Position numbers and translations under genes: made by a program. Of a stretch of 31,036 nucleotides of DNA, positions 2,256-27,902 are shown piece after piece. The DNA is from a virus. Its lineage: Duplodnaviria; Caudoviricetes. The notes under the pieces are model-generated. The model was given only the letters and a program-made list of their open reading frames with translations, did no database searches and was not told where the DNA came from. Location: IMG/VR virus record IMGVR_UViG_3300016484_000911, positions 1 to 31,036 of that record, one strand, 5' to 3'. The number at the start of each line of letters is the position of its first letter. Position 1 is the stretch's first letter.

Positions 2256-2584
2256 CACATCCCAGGTACAACCCTTGCTCTTATCTCTCTCACTGCTATC
2301 AGTAGGTGAATGGGGAGGACGTACTACTAGAGAGGGAGGAGAATGTGGAGCGGGGAGAGATACTTAGACTATGCAAAGATTGCGTAGTGATTAGAGGCTT
2401 GTTAGAGGTCATTAGAGAGGGGGGAGAGGCTGGGGATAGGGGAGGATATGGAGCGGGGGGATCGTTCAATGGCGGGGCTCCTAGGGGCCTTAGAATTGAT
2501 ATTTAGAGCATAGTTCTTCCTTATCGCTACACATTTTGGGAGTGAACCTAATAAGGTATTGTGTTCACATCTTACCCCTTTCCC

Positions 2585-2597
2585 CAACCCCTTGATT
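2585..2597 (-). promoter_or_regulatory. IHF-consensus site
   Basis: CAACCCCTTGATT is the reverse complement of WATCAANNNNTTR. Confidence 0.5.
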
Positions 2598-2722
2598 TTA
2601 CTAGGGCTCAGAGTCAAGGCTGAGAGGATATGATGGCAGAGGGGAGACGTAAGTGATTGGAATGATTAGCGATCTAGTCTTCTGGCTCAACGTTCGACTC
2701 TCTGATCTGAGCTGAGGAGCTG

Positions 2723-2735
2723 TAAGTGGTTGATA
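2723..2735 (-). promoter_or_regulatory. IHF-consensus site
   Basis: TAAGTGGTTGATA matches YAANNNNTTGATW; a near match (TAAGTGATTGGAA) lies at 2650-2662. Confidence 0.5.
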
Positions 2736-2890
2736 TCGTTGAGGAATGGAGTCGTTGCCCACCGCGACCGGCGTTGTGATTCTGATGCCTCACCCACCAC
2801 CACATAAAAAATAAAAATCAGAAAATCTCACTTCCGATAACGAAATTTATATTACCCCGCTCCACCTACCCCCACCCTCCACCTGCACAC

Positions 2891-3078
2891 CATCCCTAAA
2901 GAGCACATGCCCTTTAAAGGGCCATAGACACCCCTAGGTTCAATTCGAGAGGGGTGGGCTAGGCTTTCCCCCTCTCCGACCCCTCCCTCTCAACCTAGAG
3001 CCTCCTAGGGGCCTTAACGTGGGTGTCGCCCTAAAGGGCCCCTGTGCTCGCGCTGTTAGTTAGGCGGAGCCTCAGATG
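2891..3078 (+). ncRNA. Candidate structured RNA or ssDNA element (long stem plus three-way junction)
   Basis: Nested helices 2901-2907/3043-3049, 2909-2916/3032-3039, 2919-2922/3028-3031, 2927-2933/3021-3027, 2934-2940/2992-2998, 2947-2953/2985-2991 and 3000-3004/3008-3012; G-U pairs favour the + strand. Confidence 0.55.
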
Positions 3079-3166
3079 ACGTAGAAGTTCGGAGTTCGAG
3101 ATCATAAGTTATCCGAAAGTAACCGGAGAAAAAGTGCAATGATTTAGCGGGGATAGCTTGGGTTAT

Positions 3167-3298
3167 TTACCCCCAAACACGATAGTACTTACCCCCAAAC
3201 ACGATAGTACCGCTGTTTTAGCGACATTTCAGAACAGGGGTTTTATCTCAAGTACCCGATAGTAAAAACAGCGTAATTACCCAGATACACGATACCCC
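3167..3298 (+). repeat. 22-bp iteron-like repeats
   Basis: TTACCCCCAAACACGATAGTAC perfect tandem at 3167-3188 and 3189-3210; degenerate copies near 3243 and 3277. Confidence 0.8.
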
Positions 3299-3339
3299 CG
3301 CAACGTTGTTTGAGTATGATTATCGGAAGCTAGCCGGGG

Positions 3340-3367
3340 TTGACAAAAAAAGTTTAAGTGACATTCT
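3340..3367 (+). promoter_or_regulatory. Putative promoter for the packaging/virion operon
   Basis: Perfect TTGACA at 3340, 16-bp spacer ending in TGn, then CATTCT. Confidence 0.5.
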
Positions 3368-3671
3368 GAAGGGTTAAGTAGTTTTTAGTGAGCCTAGTGA
3401 AAATATTTTGCAAAAGGTACTACTGCTACCCCATTTTTTATGCTACCCTCCATTGGTAAGAAGAAAAGATTTATCTTAATCCTTCCTTCTTGAAACCCCT
3501 TGAAGTCTCGGGCAGAGACCAATTACCCCCGTTGGGATAATTCTCCTAGATTAAATAACACCACTTATTACTATCAATGATTGATTACCTTTGTTGGCTA
3601 TGAAGGAAGAGAAAAGACTCTTCTCTCACTGCTAACAAAGAGGTGGTGACACCTACATACATGAGGTTCTC

Positions 3672-3995
3672 TTGCGACATTTTCTCCCCGCTCCAAATAT
3701 CAACATCTCCGGTTATAAGAGAAGACCTACCCAGATACTCACAGGAGATGATCTCCCCGATGGTAAATATGCTGGCATAAGAGAGACGTGGGAGAGGATG
3801 ACTAAGGAGTGCCATGACTACAACCCCTCTACCTTTGGCAAGAAGGCGAGAAGATACGTGTGGTCTGTCTGGAGGGACGACTACACATCCTTCAAGAAGT
3901 GGTCTCTTAAAAGTGGTGGGTGGGGAGCGGGGAAAAACTTATGCTTGATAGACCCGAACGGCAACTATTGCCCCCGCAACTGCAAGTGGGTTTAA
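3672..3995 (+). CDS. Degenerate HNH-endonuclease-like protein
   Basis: W..M..EC...V...W.....FK.W and IDPNGNYCPRNCKWV parallel the intact family member at 27441-27902, but IDRID is replaced by LCLID; start codon uncertain. Confidence 0.6.
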   Translation: MRHFLPAPNINISGYKRRPTQILTGDDLPDGKYAGIRETWERMTKECHDYNPSTFGKKARRYVWSVWRDDYTSFKKWSLKSGGWGAGKNLCLIDPNGNYCPRNCKWV

Positions 3996-4057: not shown

Positions 4058-4585
4058 ATGACTCATCAACCACTGTTCGCCATCAAGTACAAAGACGGTC
4101 GCATCTCTAGCACTTCCACGGCGGAGCAGCTATTTGAAGCTATCCAGAAACTCCTCCCCGCCACAGAGATCTACTCAGTCACACCAGACCCAGACGGTAA
4201 AGGATTCTCCTATCGGGAGGTAGGCACTCTAGTTGTGGACTTTCAAGCCACAGGGAGTACCGATTCAGTACAGGCCCCCGCCCCTGTACAACCTCCCACA
4301 CCTCCCCCCTCTCCAATTACCCCCGCTCCCCTATCGAGTCCTGACCAGTACGTATTCACTCCAGATGTCCCCGCTCCAAAACCCCAACCAACTCCTCCCT
4401 CAAAGCCTAAACGAGGGAGAAAGCCGAAAGAAGCACATATCAGTAATGACCCTAATGACACGTCATGGGAGGCAGACTTGCCTAAGCCGGTAGTAACGGA
4501 GCGGGGGACGATGCAGGTAACGGGGATTTATGAGGCTTCTCCTCAGCAGGCAGCAATGGCTAGTCACTTCGGGAAGAACTGGTGA
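4058..4585 (+). CDS. Proline-rich hypothetical protein upstream of TerL
   Basis: AGGGG RBS, GTGA overlap with TerL, central Pro-rich linker and a KRGRKPK AT-hook-like motif. Confidence 0.75.
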   Translation: MTHQPLFAIKYKDGRISSTSTAEQLFEAIQKLLPATEIYSVTPDPDGKGFSYREVGTLVVDFQATGSTDSVQAPAPVQPPTPPPSPITPAPLSSPDQYVFTPDVPAPKPQPTPPSKPKRGRKPKEAHISNDPNDTSWEADLPKPVVTERGTMQVTGIYEASPQQAAMASHFGKNW

Positions 4586-6216
4586 TCAAATTCATCTACC
4601 ACCAGAACCCGGATGAGGCGATCAGGCAGAAATCGGCAGAGCTGGCCAAGCTCAAGGCCAACAAGAGCACCTACCCCCTCTACAAGAAGCTACTAGGCGA
4701 AACCCTCAAGCATGACCTCTGGTATCTGCTGCGAGTAGGACTCCAGATGAATTTCTTGGACGAGCAGCTCACAGGACATGATTTCATCAAGCACCTCTCT
4801 GACAACTGGGGAAGCGACATAGGCATCCTTCTCCCTCGAGGCTTCGGCAAAACCCTCCCCGTCTCTGGGATGTGCATCTCGTGCATCTTGCAGGATCCGA
4901 ATATCGCGATGCTTCAGATGTCTCGAACGGACGGTAACGCTGACAAAATAGGCGCGTTCGTATCGGAACACTTGATGTACAACGACATGTTGCAGGAATG
5001 TTTCGGGCGGAAATACAACCCAGACGGGTTTCTCCCCTCTTCAGTCAGTGAATGTGGTTCGTGGGGTAAAGATGGGTACATGTTGCCCTATCGCACCGTC
5101 CGCAGAATCGACCCTACCTTCGTGAACATCTCGCTCAAGTCTGCAAAGGCCGGGAAACACCCTGATATCATCTGGGTCGACGACGCGACTGAGAAGGAGA
5201 ACAACAATGAAGTGGGGTACGAACACGTCGATGACGTTATCAGAGGACTCAAGTACCTCCTCCCCGCTAACGGGTTCATGATCTGGACCGCGACTAGATG
5301 GAGTGACGCCGACCCCGTGGGGAGAGCTTACGACAAAAAACTTAGGGGGAAGCAGGGCTACTTCAACTTTCTCCTCAGAAGTTGCTATGTGGATGACGAT
5401 CCGGCTAAGGGAGTCACCTATCCCCGCAAAAAAAGGTGGGGCATGGAGATTGAGACCGGATACACACTAGAAGCGCTAGAAGAGTTGCGGACAGACCCGA
5501 TAGAAGGACCTATGTTCTCGGCACAGATGAGGAATGACCCCGCTCCAAGCGACACTACCGAGATATCTGCTGCTGATATTCGCATTTACGACCCCGCTGA
5601 CAAACCGAAGTACATATCACCTGATAGCGTCCGAATGTTCGGAATTGAGATAACAGGTGGCGGAAGACCCATTTATAACGGGTTCCGTGACTTTTGTGAA
5701 GAGCTAAGAATCAACATTCCGCTAGTCGAGCTCAAGTCGCCTAAAGAGGCGGGGATGGAGAAGGCTGACAAGATAATTGCGGCGCTCCAGCCCATTGTGG
5801 CGCAGGGAAAACTCCACTGCCAGGAGTGGATGATAGGGGATGTGACCCGCCAGAAGGACACTTTGGGTTATGAGCTCCAACGTTGCAGGGTGGCGGTCCA
5901 TGATGATATAGCGGATGCGCTGTCTAAGGTAACAGCTATGGCGGGGAAGCTCACTCCCTCACAGCCAAACGAACCAGCCCACCTCTACATCTCGGTCGAC
6001 CTAGCCTATACCGAGAAAACCCGTTCTGACTTCACCGTAGCGATAGCAGTCGCCATAGACCACGCCGGGAACTGGTGGGTCTTGAACTATGACCGCTTCC
6101 AGCTCGAACGTCCCACTGAATTATACAATAGACTGCTCAAATTCTATCGTAAGTTTGAGGAGCCTGTGTCACTCCGCTCCTTATCAGGTCGGAAGTACCC
6201 TGGCTCCTGGCGTTAA
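4582..6216 (+). CDS. terL: Terminase large subunit (nuclease domain apparently circularly permuted)
   Basis: Walker A LLPRGFGKT, Walker B IIWVDD, motif III ATRW, FSAQMRNDP linker; nuclease motifs GIE, HDDIADAL and YISVDLA..SDFT; lies upstream of the portal. Confidence 0.92.
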   Translation: MIKFIYHQNPDEAIRQKSAELAKLKANKSTYPLYKKLLGETLKHDLWYLLRVGLQMNFLDEQLTGHDFIKHLSDNWGSDIGILLPRGFGKTLPVSGMCISCILQDPNIAMLQMSRTDGNADKIGAFVSEHLMYNDMLQECFGRKYNPDGFLPSSVSECGSWGKDGYMLPYRTVRRIDPTFVNISLKSAKAGKHPDIIWVDDATEKENNNEVGYEHVDDVIRGLKYLLPANGFMIWTATRWSDADPVGRAYDKKLRGKQGYFNFLLRSCYVDDDPAKGVTYPRKKRWGMEIETGYTLEALEELRTDPIEGPMFSAQMRNDPAPSDTTEISAADIRIYDPADKPKYISPDSVRMFGIEITGGGRPIYNGFRDFCEELRINIPLVELKSPKEAGMEKADKIIAALQPIVAQGKLHCQEWMIGDVTRQKDTLGYELQRCRVAVHDDIADALSKVTAMAGKLTPSQPNEPAHLYISVDLAYTEKTRSDFTVAIAVAIDHAGNWWVLNYDRFQLERPTELYNRLLKFYRKFEEPVSLRSLSGRKYPGSWR

Positions 6217-6235
6217 TACACGTGTACGGAGCCCA

Positions 6236-6400
6236 ATGGAAAAGAAAGATCAAATCAACTACCGAAAGATGCCGGTTCCTTCGACCCCCGGCGCACAGCA
6301 AATCACCAATGAAGGCGGCGAATATAAGAAGGGCGGGAGCTCTCTTACTCATTCTATGCCAACCAAGTACGTCGTACCTGGCAGCGACAAGAAAAAGTAA
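6236..6400 (+). CDS. Small basic protein (54 aa) between TerL and portal
   Basis: GGAG RBS then ATG 6236 (MEKKDQINY...SDKKK); fills the intergenic gap. Confidence 0.6.
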   Translation: MEKKDQINYRKMPVPSTPGAQQITNEGGEYKKGGSSLTHSMPTKYVVPGSDKKK

Positions 6401-6406
6401 GTACTC

Positions 6407-8488
6407 ATGGCGAGAAAATCAGCGCAGTCCAAGGAAAAAGAGATCACAACGTCCATCAAGAATCTGATAGACGGATGTGACCAGAAGACCGCGCTGATTA
6501 AGAACACCTGGCGCGAGAATTACGATATCTTTGTCTCCGGTACGCGAACAGATGAGAAAGAGGAGTGGCAGACAGCGTTTTCTGTCAACAAACTTGGGAC
6601 ATCTACTCGGGCAGCACAGGGGAGACTTGTAAACACCATCGTAAATACTCCTGACTGGTACAAGATGGAACCAGTTGGTTATGCGAACACGCAGGCTGAA
6701 GTATTAGCTCCAACGTTTAAAAAACTGTTGGACTACTACCTAGATAGCGCGAAGTTCAAGCGTCACGCCGGGACGTTCTTTTTATGTTCTCTTATCAGCC
6801 AAGGCGCAATGTACGTCGGCTGGAAGAGGAGGATGATACAAAACCCTGAGTACATAATCAAGGCGACTCAGGAACAATTCCAGAAAGAGCAGCAGAGAAT
6901 AGCGGGGAAGGTTGTCAACCCTCAAGCGGAGACTGAGCTAGCTCCTGAGGACATGGAAGCTCGCCTCCTCCAAGCCCTAGATGAGTTCGTTGCAGAAGCT
7001 CAAGGCCTAGCAGTAGAGGAAGAAGATGTCCCTGAGTGGGTTCAGATTGGATGCCTTGACCTAAAAGACATCAACCACGAAAAGCTCTACTGGGACAGTA
7101 ACGTGATGTACATGGAGGATTCCCTGTGGAAAGCCTTCAAGTACACAGTGAACAGATGGGAGCTCGAGAGAGACGCACAGCTTGGTTATTTCTCGAAAGA
7201 GAAGGTAGCGAAGATCTCAGGTAAGAATGACATCGCAGCACGAAGTGCGATGGAGCGACGACGATACAACAATATCGGAGAGTCCCCCGCTGATAATACC
7301 GATCTAGTCGAGCTCACGGTTTACACTGGTCCCCTTATCATTGACGGGAAGGTTGTTAAAGATCGCTACTTCGCAGTCATCGCGAACGATGATCTTATCC
7401 TCAAGGATGGGGAGTATCCTTTCTGGGAACCGCCAGGGCATCATACGCCCATAGTGGCGGCTGCTGTACGGCAGATTCCATATCGCGCTACTGGCGCTGG
7501 CTTAGGTGACGGAGCGGTCAAGCTCCAGAAGATTTATGACTCCAACTGGCAGCTAGTCTGTGACACGTTCCGGTTCGGCATAGCGGGCGTTAACGTCGTT
7601 AACTATCAAAACCTGGTAGACAAGTCTCAGCTGGCAGAGGGCCTCTACCCTGGAATGACGCTTGAGGTGAGAGGCACCCCGAAGGAATCCTTCGAGCATA
7701 TCGACCTCACGAGCAACATAGAGAACCAAGCCCACCCAGTTCAAGGGATGCTTGAGCAGGCAATAGACCAGCTCACAGGTATCAATGAACTCATGGTGGG
7801 AGGGAGTAATCCTTTCTCTCGCACAGCGGCCGCCGAAACTCAGGCGAGGCTGGAAGCTGGAAATGCGAACGTAAACACTATTGCTCTCGACCTAGAGCAA
7901 AACTTCCTTATCCCGATACTCCAGAAGTGCTTTGCACGAGTCCTTCAGTTCGGCTTAAACGAGCTCAACACTAACCCAGAGCTTCAAAATCTCTTCTCCC
8001 CTGAGGAGATGAATGAGCTCACAAGGATTACCTCCACTGCTCGGTATAACGTCTTGAGCATGTGGTATCGCTTCAAGATAGAAGGCTTCTCCGCATCGAC
8101 TGACCAGAACGCAGAGATGCAGAGGATGAATGAGCTCCTCTCTATCGTAAATAGCGGAGGGCCTCTGGCGTCCCTCATAAACCTCCCTGAGTTCCTGAAG
8201 GAGTACTTCAAGGTAATGGGAGTGAAGGAGCCAAATAGATTCCTCATCGTTACTCAAAGCCCACTGGCGATAGTGACAGCTGAGAACCAGGCGCTCATGA
8301 CGGGGCACGCCGTAGCCCCTTCTGAGAGCGACGACCACGAGTTCCACTTGCAGATGCATGGACCGCTAGCAATGGGGCCGACTGCTACGCCTGAGATGCA
8401 GGAGCATTACCAGATGCACCAGATTGCGATGCAGGAGCAGCAGATGATGATGGCGGAGCAGCAGTCGCAGCAGCAATTACCTCAATAA
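6407..8488 (+). CDS. Portal protein (podovirus/P22-like)
   Basis: 693 aa after TerL; helical; IDQLTGINELMVG..SRTAAAE motif; His-rich and Gln-rich C-terminus. Confidence 0.85.
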   Translation: MARKSAQSKEKEITTSIKNLIDGCDQKTALIKNTWRENYDIFVSGTRTDEKEEWQTAFSVNKLGTSTRAAQGRLVNTIVNTPDWYKMEPVGYANTQAEVLAPTFKKLLDYYLDSAKFKRHAGTFFLCSLISQGAMYVGWKRRMIQNPEYIIKATQEQFQKEQQRIAGKVVNPQAETELAPEDMEARLLQALDEFVAEAQGLAVEEEDVPEWVQIGCLDLKDINHEKLYWDSNVMYMEDSLWKAFKYTVNRWELERDAQLGYFSKEKVAKISGKNDIAARSAMERRRYNNIGESPADNTDLVELTVYTGPLIIDGKVVKDRYFAVIANDDLILKDGEYPFWEPPGHHTPIVAAAVRQIPYRATGAGLGDGAVKLQKIYDSNWQLVCDTFRFGIAGVNVVNYQNLVDKSQLAEGLYPGMTLEVRGTPKESFEHIDLTSNIENQAHPVQGMLEQAIDQLTGINELMVGGSNPFSRTAAAETQARLEAGNANVNTIALDLEQNFLIPILQKCFARVLQFGLNELNTNPELQNLFSPEEMNELTRITSTARYNVLSMWYRFKIEGFSASTDQNAEMQRMNELLSIVNSGGPLASLINLPEFLKEYFKVMGVKEPNRFLIVTQSPLAIVTAENQALMTGHAVAPSESDDHEFHLQMHGPLAMGPTATPEMQEHYQMHQIAMQEQQMMMAEQQSQQQLPQ

Positions 8489-9460: not shown

Positions 9461-10423
9461 ATGTCACAATCTTGGGCTGGTATTGGTTCGACCATTACCG
9501 TAAACGAGCTCACTGACCTCATCCGCCACGCTGCACAAGATATGCAGGGGTTCGCGCAGCTGTGCAATCCTCCTACGGGGCAAGCACTGGGGCGCGGACG
9601 TGGCGACACGATTCAATATACCTTCTTCCCTAACTTATCAGTTAGCGGTGGAGTTCTCTCTGAGAACGAGGAGATTCCCGAGGGTTCTCTTGTTCCAATC
9701 AGCGGAAGCTACACTGTTCAGGAATATGGTAACTCTACTTCTTGGACAGGAAAGCTTGAGATGCTCTCTCGCCTCCCAGTTGAGGATGGTCTTATGCAGG
9801 CCCTCATCAACGATATGAAGAAGGCTCAGAATAGCGCTGCTTTCGCAGAGTTCAACTCTACCTCGTGGATTGCCACTTTTTCTACGGTAGCGGACGAGTT
9901 CCGTACTGATGGAGCTCAAGCTAGCTTCACGAACGTAGCAAGTGAGGACCTCTCTCTCGCTAATCTTCGATACGTAGTAAAGGAGGCTCGAAAGAGACTT
10001 ATCCCCTACTTTGATGGTGAGAGCTACGTCTACATCACTGGCGTAGATTCTTGCGATGCTATCCGTTACGACAGCGCAGTCTCTACCATGCTTCAGTATG
10101 ACAGTGGACGTGCCGCTCTTAACGGGGAAGTGGGCCGTTTAGCGACCTGTAGGTTGGTAGAAGACACCCACAAAATCGTTAAGGCCGGAGATGACGGTGG
10201 AGCTGGTACTCCTACCGGCGCAGGTCTCAACCTCGACGTGGGCTTCCTCGTCGGTGCCGACGCTGTCATTAACGAGTATGCTCTTCCTCCTGAAGTTCGC
10301 GCTCAGGATAAGGACCTCGGACGATCTATCAAGGTTGCATGGTACTTCATTGCGGCTTGGAAGAAGATCTACTCCCAGACCCTCCACAGCAAGGAGCATG
10401 TAATCAAGGTTACCTCTAAGTAA
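9461..10423 (+). CDS. Major capsid protein (N4-gp56-like, HK97 fold)
   Basis: AGGAGG RBS; GDTIQY, EYGN, GEVGR and D.GR..KVAWY motifs; 320 aa. Confidence 0.85.
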   Translation: MSQSWAGIGSTITVNELTDLIRHAAQDMQGFAQLCNPPTGQALGRGRGDTIQYTFFPNLSVSGGVLSENEEIPEGSLVPISGSYTVQEYGNSTSWTGKLEMLSRLPVEDGLMQALINDMKKAQNSAAFAEFNSTSWIATFSTVADEFRTDGAQASFTNVASEDLSLANLRYVVKEARKRLIPYFDGESYVYITGVDSCDAIRYDSAVSTMLQYDSGRAALNGEVGRLATCRLVEDTHKIVKAGDDGGAGTPTGAGLNLDVGFLVGADAVINEYALPPEVRAQDKDLGRSIKVAWYFIAAWKKIYSQTLHSKEHVIKVTSK

Positions 10424-12835: not shown

Positions 12836-13822
12836 ATGACAGTAGAGGTCTTTACCTTCTCAGTATCATCCTCCTCTCCAGGAGGAAGCACTACCATAGA
12901 CCGCACCTGGTTTGGCCCTGGTACGGATGGTAACGTTACGATGTCCGTCAATCAGACTCTCACTGGCGACAAGTTCTACAACAATCTCACTATCAATAGC
13001 GGCGTATTCCTACAAACTGCTAACCCCAGCACTCGCTCTCCCCGCCGGATATTTGTGAAAGAGACGCTTACTATAAACGGAATTATTACCGCGGGGCACA
13101 ACGCTACCGTGGCTAATAGCTTTGGCGTCCCCAACATCTCCGCGTCCGACTACCCCGATAACACCATTGGCATGTGGGGGGGGAGTACGGACGGAGGTTC
13201 TCCTAACCCCACGCTCTCTTCTGGCAATGGCAATAACGGGGGGTCGGCTGCTGCCGCATACGGGTTCGGTGGAGCTGGCGGAGCCGGAGGCTCTGGAGGA
13301 AATGGGAATGGCGGAAGAGTGGGCGGAACGGGAGGGACTTCCGGCACACCCTTCGGCTCTCGCATGTGGTTCTTCTGCGAGCACATGTGGCTCTTCGATA
13401 CATTCCAAATGGGAGGAAGTGGAGGCGGAGCTGGCGGTAATGGCGGTGGCGACGGGACCAACGTAGGAGCCCGTGGGGGAGCCGGAGGTGCTGGGGGAGG
13501 TATCGTTTGGATAGCCGCAAGGACTATCGTGATTAACGCTACCGGAGGCATCCGCGCACAAGGAGCGAGAGGAGGGAACGGCAACAACGCCACAGCTTCG
13601 GGCACCGCTCGAGGAGGTGGTGGTGGAGGTGGTGGTGGCGGTGGAGGTCTAATCCTTCTAGCCTACGAATCTCTTACCAACAACGGATTTCTTTCGGCGG
13701 CTGGCGGGAATGGAGGGTCTGGTGGCAGCGGTTTTGGAGCTGGAACTGCTGGTGCTACAGGGGCCACGGGAGCGGCAGGGAAGATTATTCGCTACAACTT
13801 CACCACCGGGGAATACGAGTAA
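12836..13822 (+). CDS. Glycine-rich tail/adhesin-like protein, paralogue 1
   Basis: WFGPGTDGNVT..FYNNLTI..RIFVK, GGAGGGIVWIAAR and GGGGGGLILLAYE motifs. Confidence 0.8.
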   Translation: MTVEVFTFSVSSSSPGGSTTIDRTWFGPGTDGNVTMSVNQTLTGDKFYNNLTINSGVFLQTANPSTRSPRRIFVKETLTINGIITAGHNATVANSFGVPNISASDYPDNTIGMWGGSTDGGSPNPTLSSGNGNNGGSAAAAYGFGGAGGAGGSGGNGNGGRVGGTGGTSGTPFGSRMWFFCEHMWLFDTFQMGGSGGGAGGNGGGDGTNVGARGGAGGAGGGIVWIAARTIVINATGGIRAQGARGGNGNNATASGTARGGGGGGGGGGGGLILLAYESLTNNGFLSAAGGNGGSGGSGFGAGTAGATGATGAAGKIIRYNFTTGEYE

Positions 13823-14802
13823 TGGTGGCCAAGCAGTACTTCTTTGGTGCCGGAGCCTCTGGCAGCGGGGGGCAGCTTCAGCGCTACTGGTACGGCACCG
13901 GAGCCGACGGCAATGTTGTGATTCCTGCTAGCACGACGCTTTCGACTGACATGTTCTATGACAACCTTACAGTCAATGCGGGCGTGATTTTGAGCCTCGG
14001 AAGTAACGTTCGTTCTCCTTGTCGGATACACGTGAAGAACACTCTTACAGTCCACGGCACTATTCGGTGTGGCCACGACAGGACAGCGCACGACCCATCA
14101 GGGCTGGCGTACGGCGGCGCAGCTTCGAGTATCGTCGGTGTGGGAGGGACTCTCGGAGGATCGGGCACAGGTAGCGATGCAGGGTTTGGACTCACAACGA
14201 CAGGCGGAGCAGCCTCCGCTGTGGGCTTAACTCGATATTCAGGCGGACAGGGAGGTGCGGGCGGACAGGGAGGTGCGGGTGGCACACACCCAGGAGGAGC
14301 GGGCGGGGCGCTGCAAACAGCTGGCTATGGCTACCGTTTTTTTGAGACGTTCACGCATGATCTGTGGATGGGGACAAATGGAACCGACGCAGGGGGGTAT
14401 ACTGGTGGCGGTGCTGGAGGATCCGGTGGTGGCGGCGGTGGGGGCAATGGGACCAACTCGGGTGGCATAGGAGGTAAGGGCGGAGCTGGTGGCGGCGTAG
14501 TGTGGATAGCCGCTCGGGACATCGTAGTCGCAGGTAGTATTGAGGCCAACGGAGCAAAGGGCGCTAATGGTGCCCCGGGCTCCTCGGGTGGCGGCGGCGG
14601 AGCAGGCGGCGGCGGCGGTGGGGGAGGGGTGATCTTGTTGGCTTATGAATCCCTCACCCTCACGGGCCAAATCACAGCTCTCGGCGGATTGGGGGGCTCA
14701 GGAGGAGCAGGCGGAGCTGGAGCTTCAAACGGAGCAGACGGAGCGACAGGACAATCGGGAGTAGTTTACCACTTCAACTTCACTACCGGAGACCCCGCAT
14801 GA
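13822..14802 (+). CDS. Glycine-rich tail/adhesin-like protein, paralogue 2
   Basis: WYGTGADGNVV..FYDNLTV..RIHVK, GGVVWIAAR and GGVILLAYE; coupled at both ends. Confidence 0.8.
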   Translation: MVAKQYFFGAGASGSGGQLQRYWYGTGADGNVVIPASTTLSTDMFYDNLTVNAGVILSLGSNVRSPCRIHVKNTLTVHGTIRCGHDRTAHDPSGLAYGGAASSIVGVGGTLGGSGTGSDAGFGLTTTGGAASAVGLTRYSGGQGGAGGQGGAGGTHPGGAGGALQTAGYGYRFFETFTHDLWMGTNGTDAGGYTGGGAGGSGGGGGGGNGTNSGGIGGKGGAGGGVVWIAARDIVVAGSIEANGAKGANGAPGSSGGGGGAGGGGGGGGVILLAYESLTLTGQITALGGLGGSGGAGGAGASNGADGATGQSGVVYHFNFTTGDPA

Positions 14803-15785
14803 CAGCGCGACAATACCCTATAGGGGGATTCGCTACGGCCAGTTCTGGGGTGGCGGCTCGCTACTGGTTTGGAGATGGCGCAGATGGAAGCGTGACTATC
14901 TCTGCTGGGGTGACTACCCTCACCCGAGACATGTTTTATGACAACCTGACCATAGCCGCTGGCGCGACACTCAGAGCCGGTGATGGCACTTCCGCTAGCC
15001 GAAAAATTCACGTTCAGGGAACGCTGACCGTAGCGGGTACGCTCGCAGGCGGGTATATATCCACCGACACTACTCCCGGCGTTTGGATACCAGCTGGAGG
15101 TACAACAGCCGCCTCTAGCGTGTTCGGTATCCTTGGTAGCGCAGGGCAGGGCGGAACTACCGTAGTGCTCGGGGGGTTCGGCAGCGGGAACTTAGGGACG
15201 AACAACCAGAGTAGATTCAGTTACGGCGGCGCTGGCGGCAATGGCGGCAACGGGGGGAGCGCTCCCGGCGGTTCTGGCGGAACGGGAGGGACTTGCCTGA
15301 AGACGGAGTTCAGATATCCCATCTTCCGGTTCAATCCGATCTACTTCGGGGTCAATCAGAATTTCACGGCGTTCCGCAACAGGTTCGCGACATTCAGCCA
15401 AGCAGGCGCTACGGGGGGTGGTGGAGCCGGAGATGGGACAAATAGAGGCGGAACCTCTGGAGCCGCCGGCGTAGGGGGTGGCGCGCTGTGGATAGCTGCC
15501 CGACACATCATAGTGCTCCCCGGTGGGGCCATTAACAGCCTAGGACAGCCCGGCTTCCCTGGAGCCACTCCCACTGTAGGGAATTGCGGCGGTGGCGGTG
15601 GCGGAGGAGGCGGTGGTGGTGGAGCAATCTTTATCGGCTACGAGACCTACTCTAACAGCGGAACTATCAGCGTCGCTGGAGGAGCGGGTGGTGCTGGTGG
15701 CAGCGGTCGAGGCACAGGGTCAGCAGGACAGGCAGGAGAAGCAGGGTCTGCAGGGCAAATATATCTCTACAACCTAGGTGGGTAA
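14799..15785 (+). CDS. Glycine-rich tail/adhesin-like protein, paralogue 3
   Basis: WFGDGADGSVT..FYDNLTI..KIHVQ, GGALWIAAR and GGAIFIGYE. Confidence 0.8.
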   Translation: MTARQYPIGGFATASSGVAARYWFGDGADGSVTISAGVTTLTRDMFYDNLTIAAGATLRAGDGTSASRKIHVQGTLTVAGTLAGGYISTDTTPGVWIPAGGTTAASSVFGILGSAGQGGTTVVLGGFGSGNLGTNNQSRFSYGGAGGNGGNGGSAPGGSGGTGGTCLKTEFRYPIFRFNPIYFGVNQNFTAFRNRFATFSQAGATGGGGAGDGTNRGGTSGAAGVGGGALWIAARHIIVLPGGAINSLGQPGFPGATPTVGNCGGGGGGGGGGGGAIFIGYETYSNSGTISVAGGAGGAGGSGRGTGSAGQAGEAGSAGQIYLYNLGG

Positions 15786-27226: not shown

Positions 27227-27451
27227 ATGGAAGTAAGGAAGATACTCGAAGCCAGCGATAGGACCCTGTCAATGCTACCGCTTAACGGCGGGAAGACTCA
27301 GACAGGAGCCACTTTATATGTCGTGGGGCAACTACTCGCACTCATACCCGGACTACAGTTTCTTGCAGTCCCAGGAGTACTGGAGGCTATCGGCACAGCC
27401 GTAATGTCGGTGGGTGTTGCTCATCGCGCCATCAAGAAGGCTATCGAGTAG
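27227..27451 (+). CDS. Holin-like small membrane protein
   Basis: NGGKT motif followed by two hydrophobic segments and a basic tail; GAGG RBS. Confidence 0.6.
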   Translation: MEVRKILEASDRTLSMLPLNGGKTQTGATLYVVGQLLALIPGLQFLAVPGVLEAIGTAVMSVGVAHRAIKKAIE

Positions 27452-27902
27452 CGTAGCCACGTTGTTTGTGTAGCACTCTAAAGATCGTCTTCTTACCACA
27501 CCCCATGATTGCGGCAATCTCTCTATGGGGTGTTCCTTCGCTCGCCATCGCCTGTATTCTTTCCACATCAACCTCAGTCAGTGGGACTTTTCTCTCGACG
27601 CTGCTCCTCCTGTTCCACTGATTCTCAAGCGGTGTCACCCACCTACAGTTAGATGGCTCATAATTCCCATCGCTATCTATCCTGTCTATCTGTAGCTCGG
27701 CCCTCCACTCATTAGTCAGAGCCCACTCCTTGAAAACTTCGTACCGACTCCATTCCTCGCAGACCCGGATACCCCTGCCACCATAGAACTGATAGGCTGA
27801 GTGATTCTTGTTTGAACATCTCTTTCTCATGTATATCCAACAGCGGTAAAGCTTGAGATAGGGGCTTGAGGTCCGGTTGTCTAAATTAGGTTTTCTTGGC
27901 AT
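27441..27902 (-). CDS. HNH-family homing-type endonuclease with C-terminal HTH
   Basis: W..MRKRC...YGGRGIRVCEEW...IDRIDSDGNYEPSNCRW...NQWN and HREIAAIMGCGKKTIFRVL; GGAGA RBS. Confidence 0.88.
   Translation of the reverse strand: MPRKPNLDNRTSSPYLKLYRCWIYMRKRCSNKNHSAYQFYGGRGIRVCEEWSRYEVFKEWALTNEWRAELQIDRIDSDGNYEPSNCRWVTPLENQWNRRSSVERKVPLTEVDVERIQAMASEGTPHREIAAIMGCGKKTIFRVLHKQRGYATR

Follow-up and report, generated by a model that had tools for sequence, protein, structure and literature searches.

Evidence for a circularly permuted nuclease domain in the large terminase of a lineage of uncultured tailed phages

The DNA analyzed here (the window) is a linear IMG/VR virus record of 31,036 bases. 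It contains a gene for a large terminase (TerL), which is directly followed by the portal gene and, beyond a number of small head genes, by the major capsid gene (Table 1). The terminase ORF matches phrog_38 with E 2.7e-30 in a PHROG profile scan, and the N-terminus of its product bears an ASCE P-loop ATPase with Walker A and Walker B motifs, as is typical of TerL. The remainder of the protein resembles the RNase H-like nuclease of other terminases, except that two blocks of the chain appear in the opposite of their usual order. In the following, we refer to this order as permuted and to the usual one as normal. The portal-then-head-gene succession, with TerL beside the portal, also occurs in the permuted loci that we mapped from related phages.

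Table 1. Features of the virus record and of its large terminase gene (aa, residues of the TerL protein).
Feature	Position	Strand	Remarks
IMG/VR virus record (linear)	31,036 bases		Estimated 77% complete
TerL large terminase gene	4582..6216	+	544 aa, GTG start, single intact open frame
ATPase domain, lid, and interdomain linker, aa 1-342	4582..5607	+	Order normal until the expected start of β1
Walker A PRGFGKT, aa 85-91	4834..4854	+	R86 and K90 invariant in 111/111 full-length permuted proteins
Walker B IIWVDD, aa 196-201	5167..5184	+	D200 and D201 invariant in 111/111
I-S-P insertion, aa 345-347	5614..5622	+	At the new linker-to-β4 junction; lineage-specific
Normally C-terminal nuclease block, now first, aa 350-462	5629..5967	+	β4 (E356), helix B, β5, K394 helix, HDD helix (D442, D445); from profile tiling and DSSP on the model
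New loop from HDD helix to β1, aa 455-466	5944..5979	+	Coil in the model (DSSP); P459 kept in 68/68 alignment rows (clade-1 proteins)
Normally N-terminal nuclease block, now last, aa 464-526	5971..6159	+	β1 (D473), loop with D483, β2, β3, helix A; from profile tiling
Basic C-terminal tail ending RKYPGSWR	6160..6213	+	Attached to helix A, not to the HDD helix
Portal gene	6407..8488	+	Directly downstream of TerL; phrog_1216 E 1.1e-9, phrog_332 E 1.1e-19
Major capsid gene	9461-10423		phrog_1357 major head, E 1.6e-11; small head genes between portal and capsid

The genes immediately upstream of TerL vary among relatives. In the window, a proline-rich ORF of 175 aa (4058-4585) overlaps the TerL start; it has no Pfam or PHROG match, and its first 60-70 residues are kept in permuted relatives, where other genes may intervene before TerL. 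A zinc metallopeptidase-like gene with an HExxH motif lies directly upstream of TerL in other loci (L001:7380-8009, L003:1399-2136, and L004:59-694), and the L003 copy gives weak reprolysin-type Pfam matches, below the cut-off. HNH endonuclease genes are located just upstream of the terminase module (3672-3995, + strand) and at 27441-27902 (- strand). At the other end of TerL, an ORF in a different frame (6089-6400, + strand) overlaps the end of the gene, and its part from about 6238 to 6400 resembles an ORF that L005 and L129 have at the corresponding position, so that there is probably a small conserved gene between TerL and the portal. Three tandem paralogous ORFs of 326-328 aa each (12836-13822, 13822-14802, and 14799-15785) share mainly their last 100 residues, at 45-57% identity, and two of them match phrog_13336; at this site, relatives carry one or two ORFs that look unrelated, and 12836-15785 probably represents a variable region involved in the tail or in receptor binding. 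The stretch 2271-3585, about 1.3 kb, contains no + strand ORF of at least 70 aa, one short - strand ORF, and no tRNA or Rfam match, and is possibly a regulatory or genome-end region. The longest contigs with permuted genes measure 40-45 kb, and the presence of an SU10-type adaptor and internal virion proteins suggests short-tailed particles.

The order of the nuclease elements is most directly seen in profile alignments. The protein matches phrog_38 in three stretches: residues 28-342 correspond to profile positions 266-542, residues 462-526 to 543-606, and residues 350-448 to 607-697, where the coordinates of the latter two were taken from sub-fragments scanned separately. All seven normal-order relatives scanned as controls match in a single stretch, and all four permuted relatives scanned match in three. 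A canonical-order profile, constructed from 38 normal-order relatives, is tiled without overlap or loss: residues 33-342 cover positions 14-302, residues 350-462 cover 368-469 (i-E 2.7e-21), and residues 464-526 cover 306-367 (i-E 2.5e-20). The cut point thus falls at 367|368 of the canonical profile (606|607 of phrog_38), in the loop between helix A and β4, and the normal linker sequence pattern persists up to the switch, reaching profile position 302, three short of the last one before the moved block (305). At the sequence level, this is the arrangement of a natural circular permutant, with one cut, the old ends joined, and nothing lost or doubled. All core RNase H-like elements are present, and profile tiling and conservation point to three catalytic carboxylates. 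Judged by these matches, the swapped order is far beyond chance.

The proteins of PHROG 38 (T7-like or Terminase_6C-type terminases, covered by NF033889, TIGR01630, PF17289, and PF22530) are homologous to the query over its full length. They share the ATPase, the linker, the nuclease elements, the acidic residues, and the position of the gene directly before the portal gene, but have the nuclease blocks in standard order. Models built on that order recognize the query poorly. The canonical chain of PF17289 and TIGR01630 (β1-β2-β3-helix A-β4-helix B-β5...HDD helix) is not the one found here; the PF17289 match covers positions 57-151 only and scores 12.4 bits (15.6 for the domain alone) against a curated cut-off of 22.6, the NF033889 score is 29.2 against a cut-off of 150, and TIGR01630 gives no match at E 0.01. 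The HK97-type TerL_ATPase and TerL_nuclease families, PF03354 and PF20441, were likewise not matched in a Pfam scan of the protein.

An earlier, sequence-only reading of this DNA had proposed that the nuclease domain is permuted, and the proposal is borne out by the tiling of two profiles, by 123 proteins with the same order, by an independent contig, and by structure searches (see below). It had placed E356 at 5647, D441, D442, and D445 at 5902-5916, and D473 at 5998, all of which are correct, and had anticipated that the nuclease halves would align to terminase profiles in swapped order, as they do with both phrog_38 and the canonical profile. An alignment colinear with canonical TerL, which would have spoken against it, was seen neither in profile nor in structure comparisons. 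One detail did not survive: the motif KYISPD, just before β4, had been regarded as a relic of the YISVD of β1, left by duplication and subsequent deletion. In an alignment of 68 clade-1 proteins, however, the columns that hold I, S, and P are empty in 66, 66, and 65 rows, respectively, and the consensus at the site is P-K-L-G-x-V-R. The likeness is a chance feature of a single lineage. Duplication followed by deletion is thereby left as a proposal without a fossil.

Structure prediction leads to the same picture. The AlphaFold model of the full-length protein has a pLDDT of 92.7 and a pTM of 0.86, and its best structural matches are terminases. The nuclease part alone (5548-6168) is predicted to be a single confident domain (pLDDT 94.0, pTM 0.91); the C-terminal tail is of low confidence, with pLDDT values of 53 and 45 in its last two blocks. 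Among the listed matches of a sequential aligner, solved terminase nucleases can be followed no further than the HDD helix, their alignments ending at residue 132-146 of the nuclease model, before the β1 aspartate at residue 151. Similarly, the low-rmsd terminase rows from BFVD fall into alignments of 60-65 columns (rmsd 1.5-2.8) and of 99-116 columns (rmsd 2.7-4.4); a low-rmsd row over the whole domain does not occur among them. With the PhiV-1 terminase (PDB 8DGC chain E) and the T7 gp19 model (4BIJ), the alignment stops at residue 462, and the last block of the query cannot be aligned in sequence order. In the RuvC-like two-metal nuclease of G20c and P74-26 (PDB 5M1F and 5TGE), the catalytic residues follow each other as D294, D347, and D429, whereas the order here is E356, D442, and D473, with a Glu in place of the Asp at the second site.

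Aligned in sequence order, the permuted nuclease model (5548-6168) instead resembles Maf/Ham1, CinA, and the anticodon-binding domains of class II tRNA synthetases, with middling Z scores and 2-14% identity. This likeness is one of common topology, with no sign of kinship or function. In the models, a single circular permutation appears to turn the RNase H sheet topology into that of Maf/Ham1, CinA, and the anticodon-binding domains; a search of the literature for a link between the RNase H and anticodon-binding topologies found nothing relevant.

The permuted order is shared by many relatives. In a first homologue search, 70 proteins other than the query were recovered from several sources at 35-61% identity, most of them aligned over at least 90% of the length, and all 70 are permuted. 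A search with the nuclease part, accepting matches of any length, gave 53 matches, of which 46 were new: 26 permuted, 17 in normal order, and 3 unclassified (two unrelated repeat proteins and one fragment). These brought to light a second, distant clade (clade 2), which has 21-24% identity to the query and was enlarged by 25 proteins through further searching. Altogether, of the 168 protein ids, 123 are permuted, 32 are in normal order, 11 are partial, and 2 were unmatched, and the ORFs among loci L001-L158 comprise 18 permuted, 61 normal, and 79 partial ones. The homologues of the same order that the sequence-only reading had asked for thus exist in number, and permuted terminases are lineage-wide in more than 100 uncultured phage relatives. 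None of the 168 proteins has a duplicated nuclease block, and no duplicated or split intermediate was found among the retrieved proteins and loci. Neither an isolate nor a prophage carrying a permuted TerL was found in the searches made. The names given by the sources, where present, read 'hypothetical protein', which together with the missed curated cut-offs and a Foldseek search of the nuclease model without a terminase among its best 50 matches reveals an annotation blind spot.

Residue conservation was counted in the 111 permuted proteins, out of 123, that have at least 480 aa. Besides the Walker residues listed in Table 1, T238, K394, D442, D445, and D473 are invariant in all of them. Position 356 is Glu in 106 and Asp in 3 (acidic in 109/111), position 483 is Asp in 105 and Asn in 6, and position 441 is Asp in 106. 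Of 123 proteins examined, 120 had both motifs matched, and in 119 of these D442 and D473 are 27-33 aa apart. In the G20c terminase, D294, D347, and D429 are needed for cutting, with H427 and D300 being of secondary importance (PMC5389553); alignment and spacing lead us to equate D473, E356, and D442 with these three. We infer that the permuted order has been maintained under purifying selection since its origin, and most likely the permuted TerL is an active packaging nuclease.

To place the change on a tree, we used the ATPase plus linker from 62 permuted and 38 normal-order rows, which remained of the full sets after redundancy had been lowered by identity and intein-bearing and truncated rows had been excluded. 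A branch with 100/99 support separates the permuted rows from the normal ones, requiring one change, and the split is present in all 200 bootstrap trees examined, although the bootstrap was not fully settled. Free trees of the two nuclease blocks require 3 and 2 changes; the exceptions are normal rows on long branches (1.96 and 1.68). The simplest reading is one old event in one phage lineage, which presumably took place before its two deep clades diverged. As to the route, the simplest would be that part of the nuclease-coding stretch was duplicated and the redundant parts were then deleted. An aromatic residue occurs among the last 3 positions in 32/36 clade-1, 23/38 normal, and 5/26 clade-2 rows (24-29% expected), which hints weakly at retention of the old tail; this would require one duplication plus two deletions.

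The predicted fold also suggests why such a swap is tolerable. The chain runs from the ATPase and linker through β4 to the HDD helix, then via a 12-residue loop through β1-β2-β3-helix A to the tail. The two blocks are predicted to fold into one five-stranded RNase H-like domain that brings D473, E356, and D442 together. β1 and β4 are adjacent parallel strands with catalytic residues at their C-terminal ends, and the ATPase linker consequently shifts by one strand. The C-terminal helix of terminases is antiparallel to β1 (PMC3985635), which puts the end of the helix near the start of β1, where a short loop can join them. All three altered connections would thus be on the domain face opposite the active site, which would account for the tolerance of the swap.

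Several other explanations deserve consideration. An assembler might have exchanged two adjacent blocks. Run X1, the best match, contains the gene in one piece but may be the record's own source and is then not independent; furthermore, the evidence from the four runs consists of assembled contigs. Against this, a wastewater run from another study (X2) yielded a 434-nt contig that equals 5588-6021 without a mismatch and crosses both junctions, which speaks against the misassembly at about 5620 or 5975 that the sequence-only reading had named as a refutation, and run X3 covers the first junction at depth 2. With the order shared by all 70 homologues of the first search and no repeat beyond chance length flanking the blocks, an artefact is hardly conceivable. 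Alternatively, the permuted domain might fold and yet be a vestigial, non-cutting DNA-binding domain, such as phi29 possesses (PMC13595956). No small terminase was identified, and DSSP assigns helix and coil in the models where the terminase β-hairpin is expected near the C-terminal helix, before the HDD motif; the models thus show no hairpin of the kind seen in G20c and P74-26. Some solved structures likewise lack this hairpin or have it disordered (PMC13595956). The invariance of D442, D445, and D473, on the other hand, extends down to about 22% identity. In a related strain (run X5), 15 of the 16 listed differences in the moved block (aa 464-526) are synonymous. Loss of nuclease activity is accordingly very unlikely. 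We consider it highly probable that this TerL has a nuclease domain circularly permuted within its chain, and that the protein likely still works as a normal ATP-driven packaging motor and a two-metal DNA-cutting enzyme.

The two remaining alternatives concern how this permutation came about and why it was kept. The β1-β3-helix A block could have been captured from the terminase of another phage and placed behind the HDD helix, with loss of the original, possibly separately in clades 1 and 2. Indeed, the two clades are not joined in the free tree of the moved 63-column block, and they differ in tail length and in the D442-to-D473 spacing (mostly 30-32 vs 27-28). On the other hand, neither block rejects a single permuted clade (p-AU 0.44 and 0.57), the cut point is identical in both clades, and the ATPase tree joins them. 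Neighboring genes agree: among loci with at least 1.5 kb downstream, the record's portal matches 11/12 permuted but 0/48 normal-order loci, and the twelfth permuted locus, L045, the sole one from clade 2, resembles the record in capsid, adaptor, and portal, the last by blastp. The normal-order outgroup is thin, its 38 rows having been retrieved with permuted queries, and a closer normal-order sister group could split clades 1 and 2, so that two events or a capture may have occurred, though this is improbable. It is also conceivable that the permutation was selected for altered function, either by removing an arm from the ATPase site or by blunting bacterial sensors of terminases. In the D6E terminase, an arm directly after the last helix enters the ATPase site, its loss raises Km about 20-fold, and docking on the portal has been proposed as a further role of it (PMC5727402); here the same position is taken by the loop into β1, and a basic tail emerges from helix A. 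The sensors recognize the ATPase and, to some extent, the nuclease: SeAvs3 attaches to the nuclease in its native fold, and EcAvs2 captures a helix that is buried in the nuclease (PMC13601566). Escape from terminase-sensing defences would be a speculative possibility. Neither the classification nor the ATPase tree shows a return to normal order inside the permuted clade. Yet a basic tail is still present at the C-terminus, the active-site residues and ATP that SeAvs3 reads are unchanged, EcAvs2 is triggered by the ATPase alone (PMC13601566), and neutral fixation accounts for all observations. Selection for a new function thus seems doubtful, and the permutation has probably left function unchanged.

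Circular permutation itself is a known process, but a permuted terminase nuclease has apparently not been described. The sequence-only reading knew of none, and our search of the open-licence literature, in agreement with this, found no such paper. PMC3985635, which surveyed 60,923 RNase H-like sequences, does not contain the string 'permut' in its main text, and neither do PMC13595956 and PMC13601566. In PMC7617512 and PMC7824862, the term is used of P22 DNA or of methylases. A 2026 review calls the solved terminase nuclease domains practically indistinguishable (PMC13595956).

More speculatively, the terminase nuclease may have been rewired more than once in tailed phages, with ATPase-nuclease coupling, portal docking, or defence detection altered in the present case, an extension that we regard as unlikely. 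If it were true, the arm that plugs the ATPase site would be gone in the permuted lineage, so that motor control would differ, and the lineage would provide a dated natural switch from an RNase H to an anticodon-binding-domain-like sheet topology, with both states alive. What we describe is a whole phage lineage, with genomes of roughly 40-45 kb, in which an essential conserved domain is rewired. Because the segment after the last helix, to which coupling and docking are ascribed (PMC5727402), has become an internal loop, these phages may serve as a natural experiment on how the nuclease couples to the ATPase and docks on the portal.
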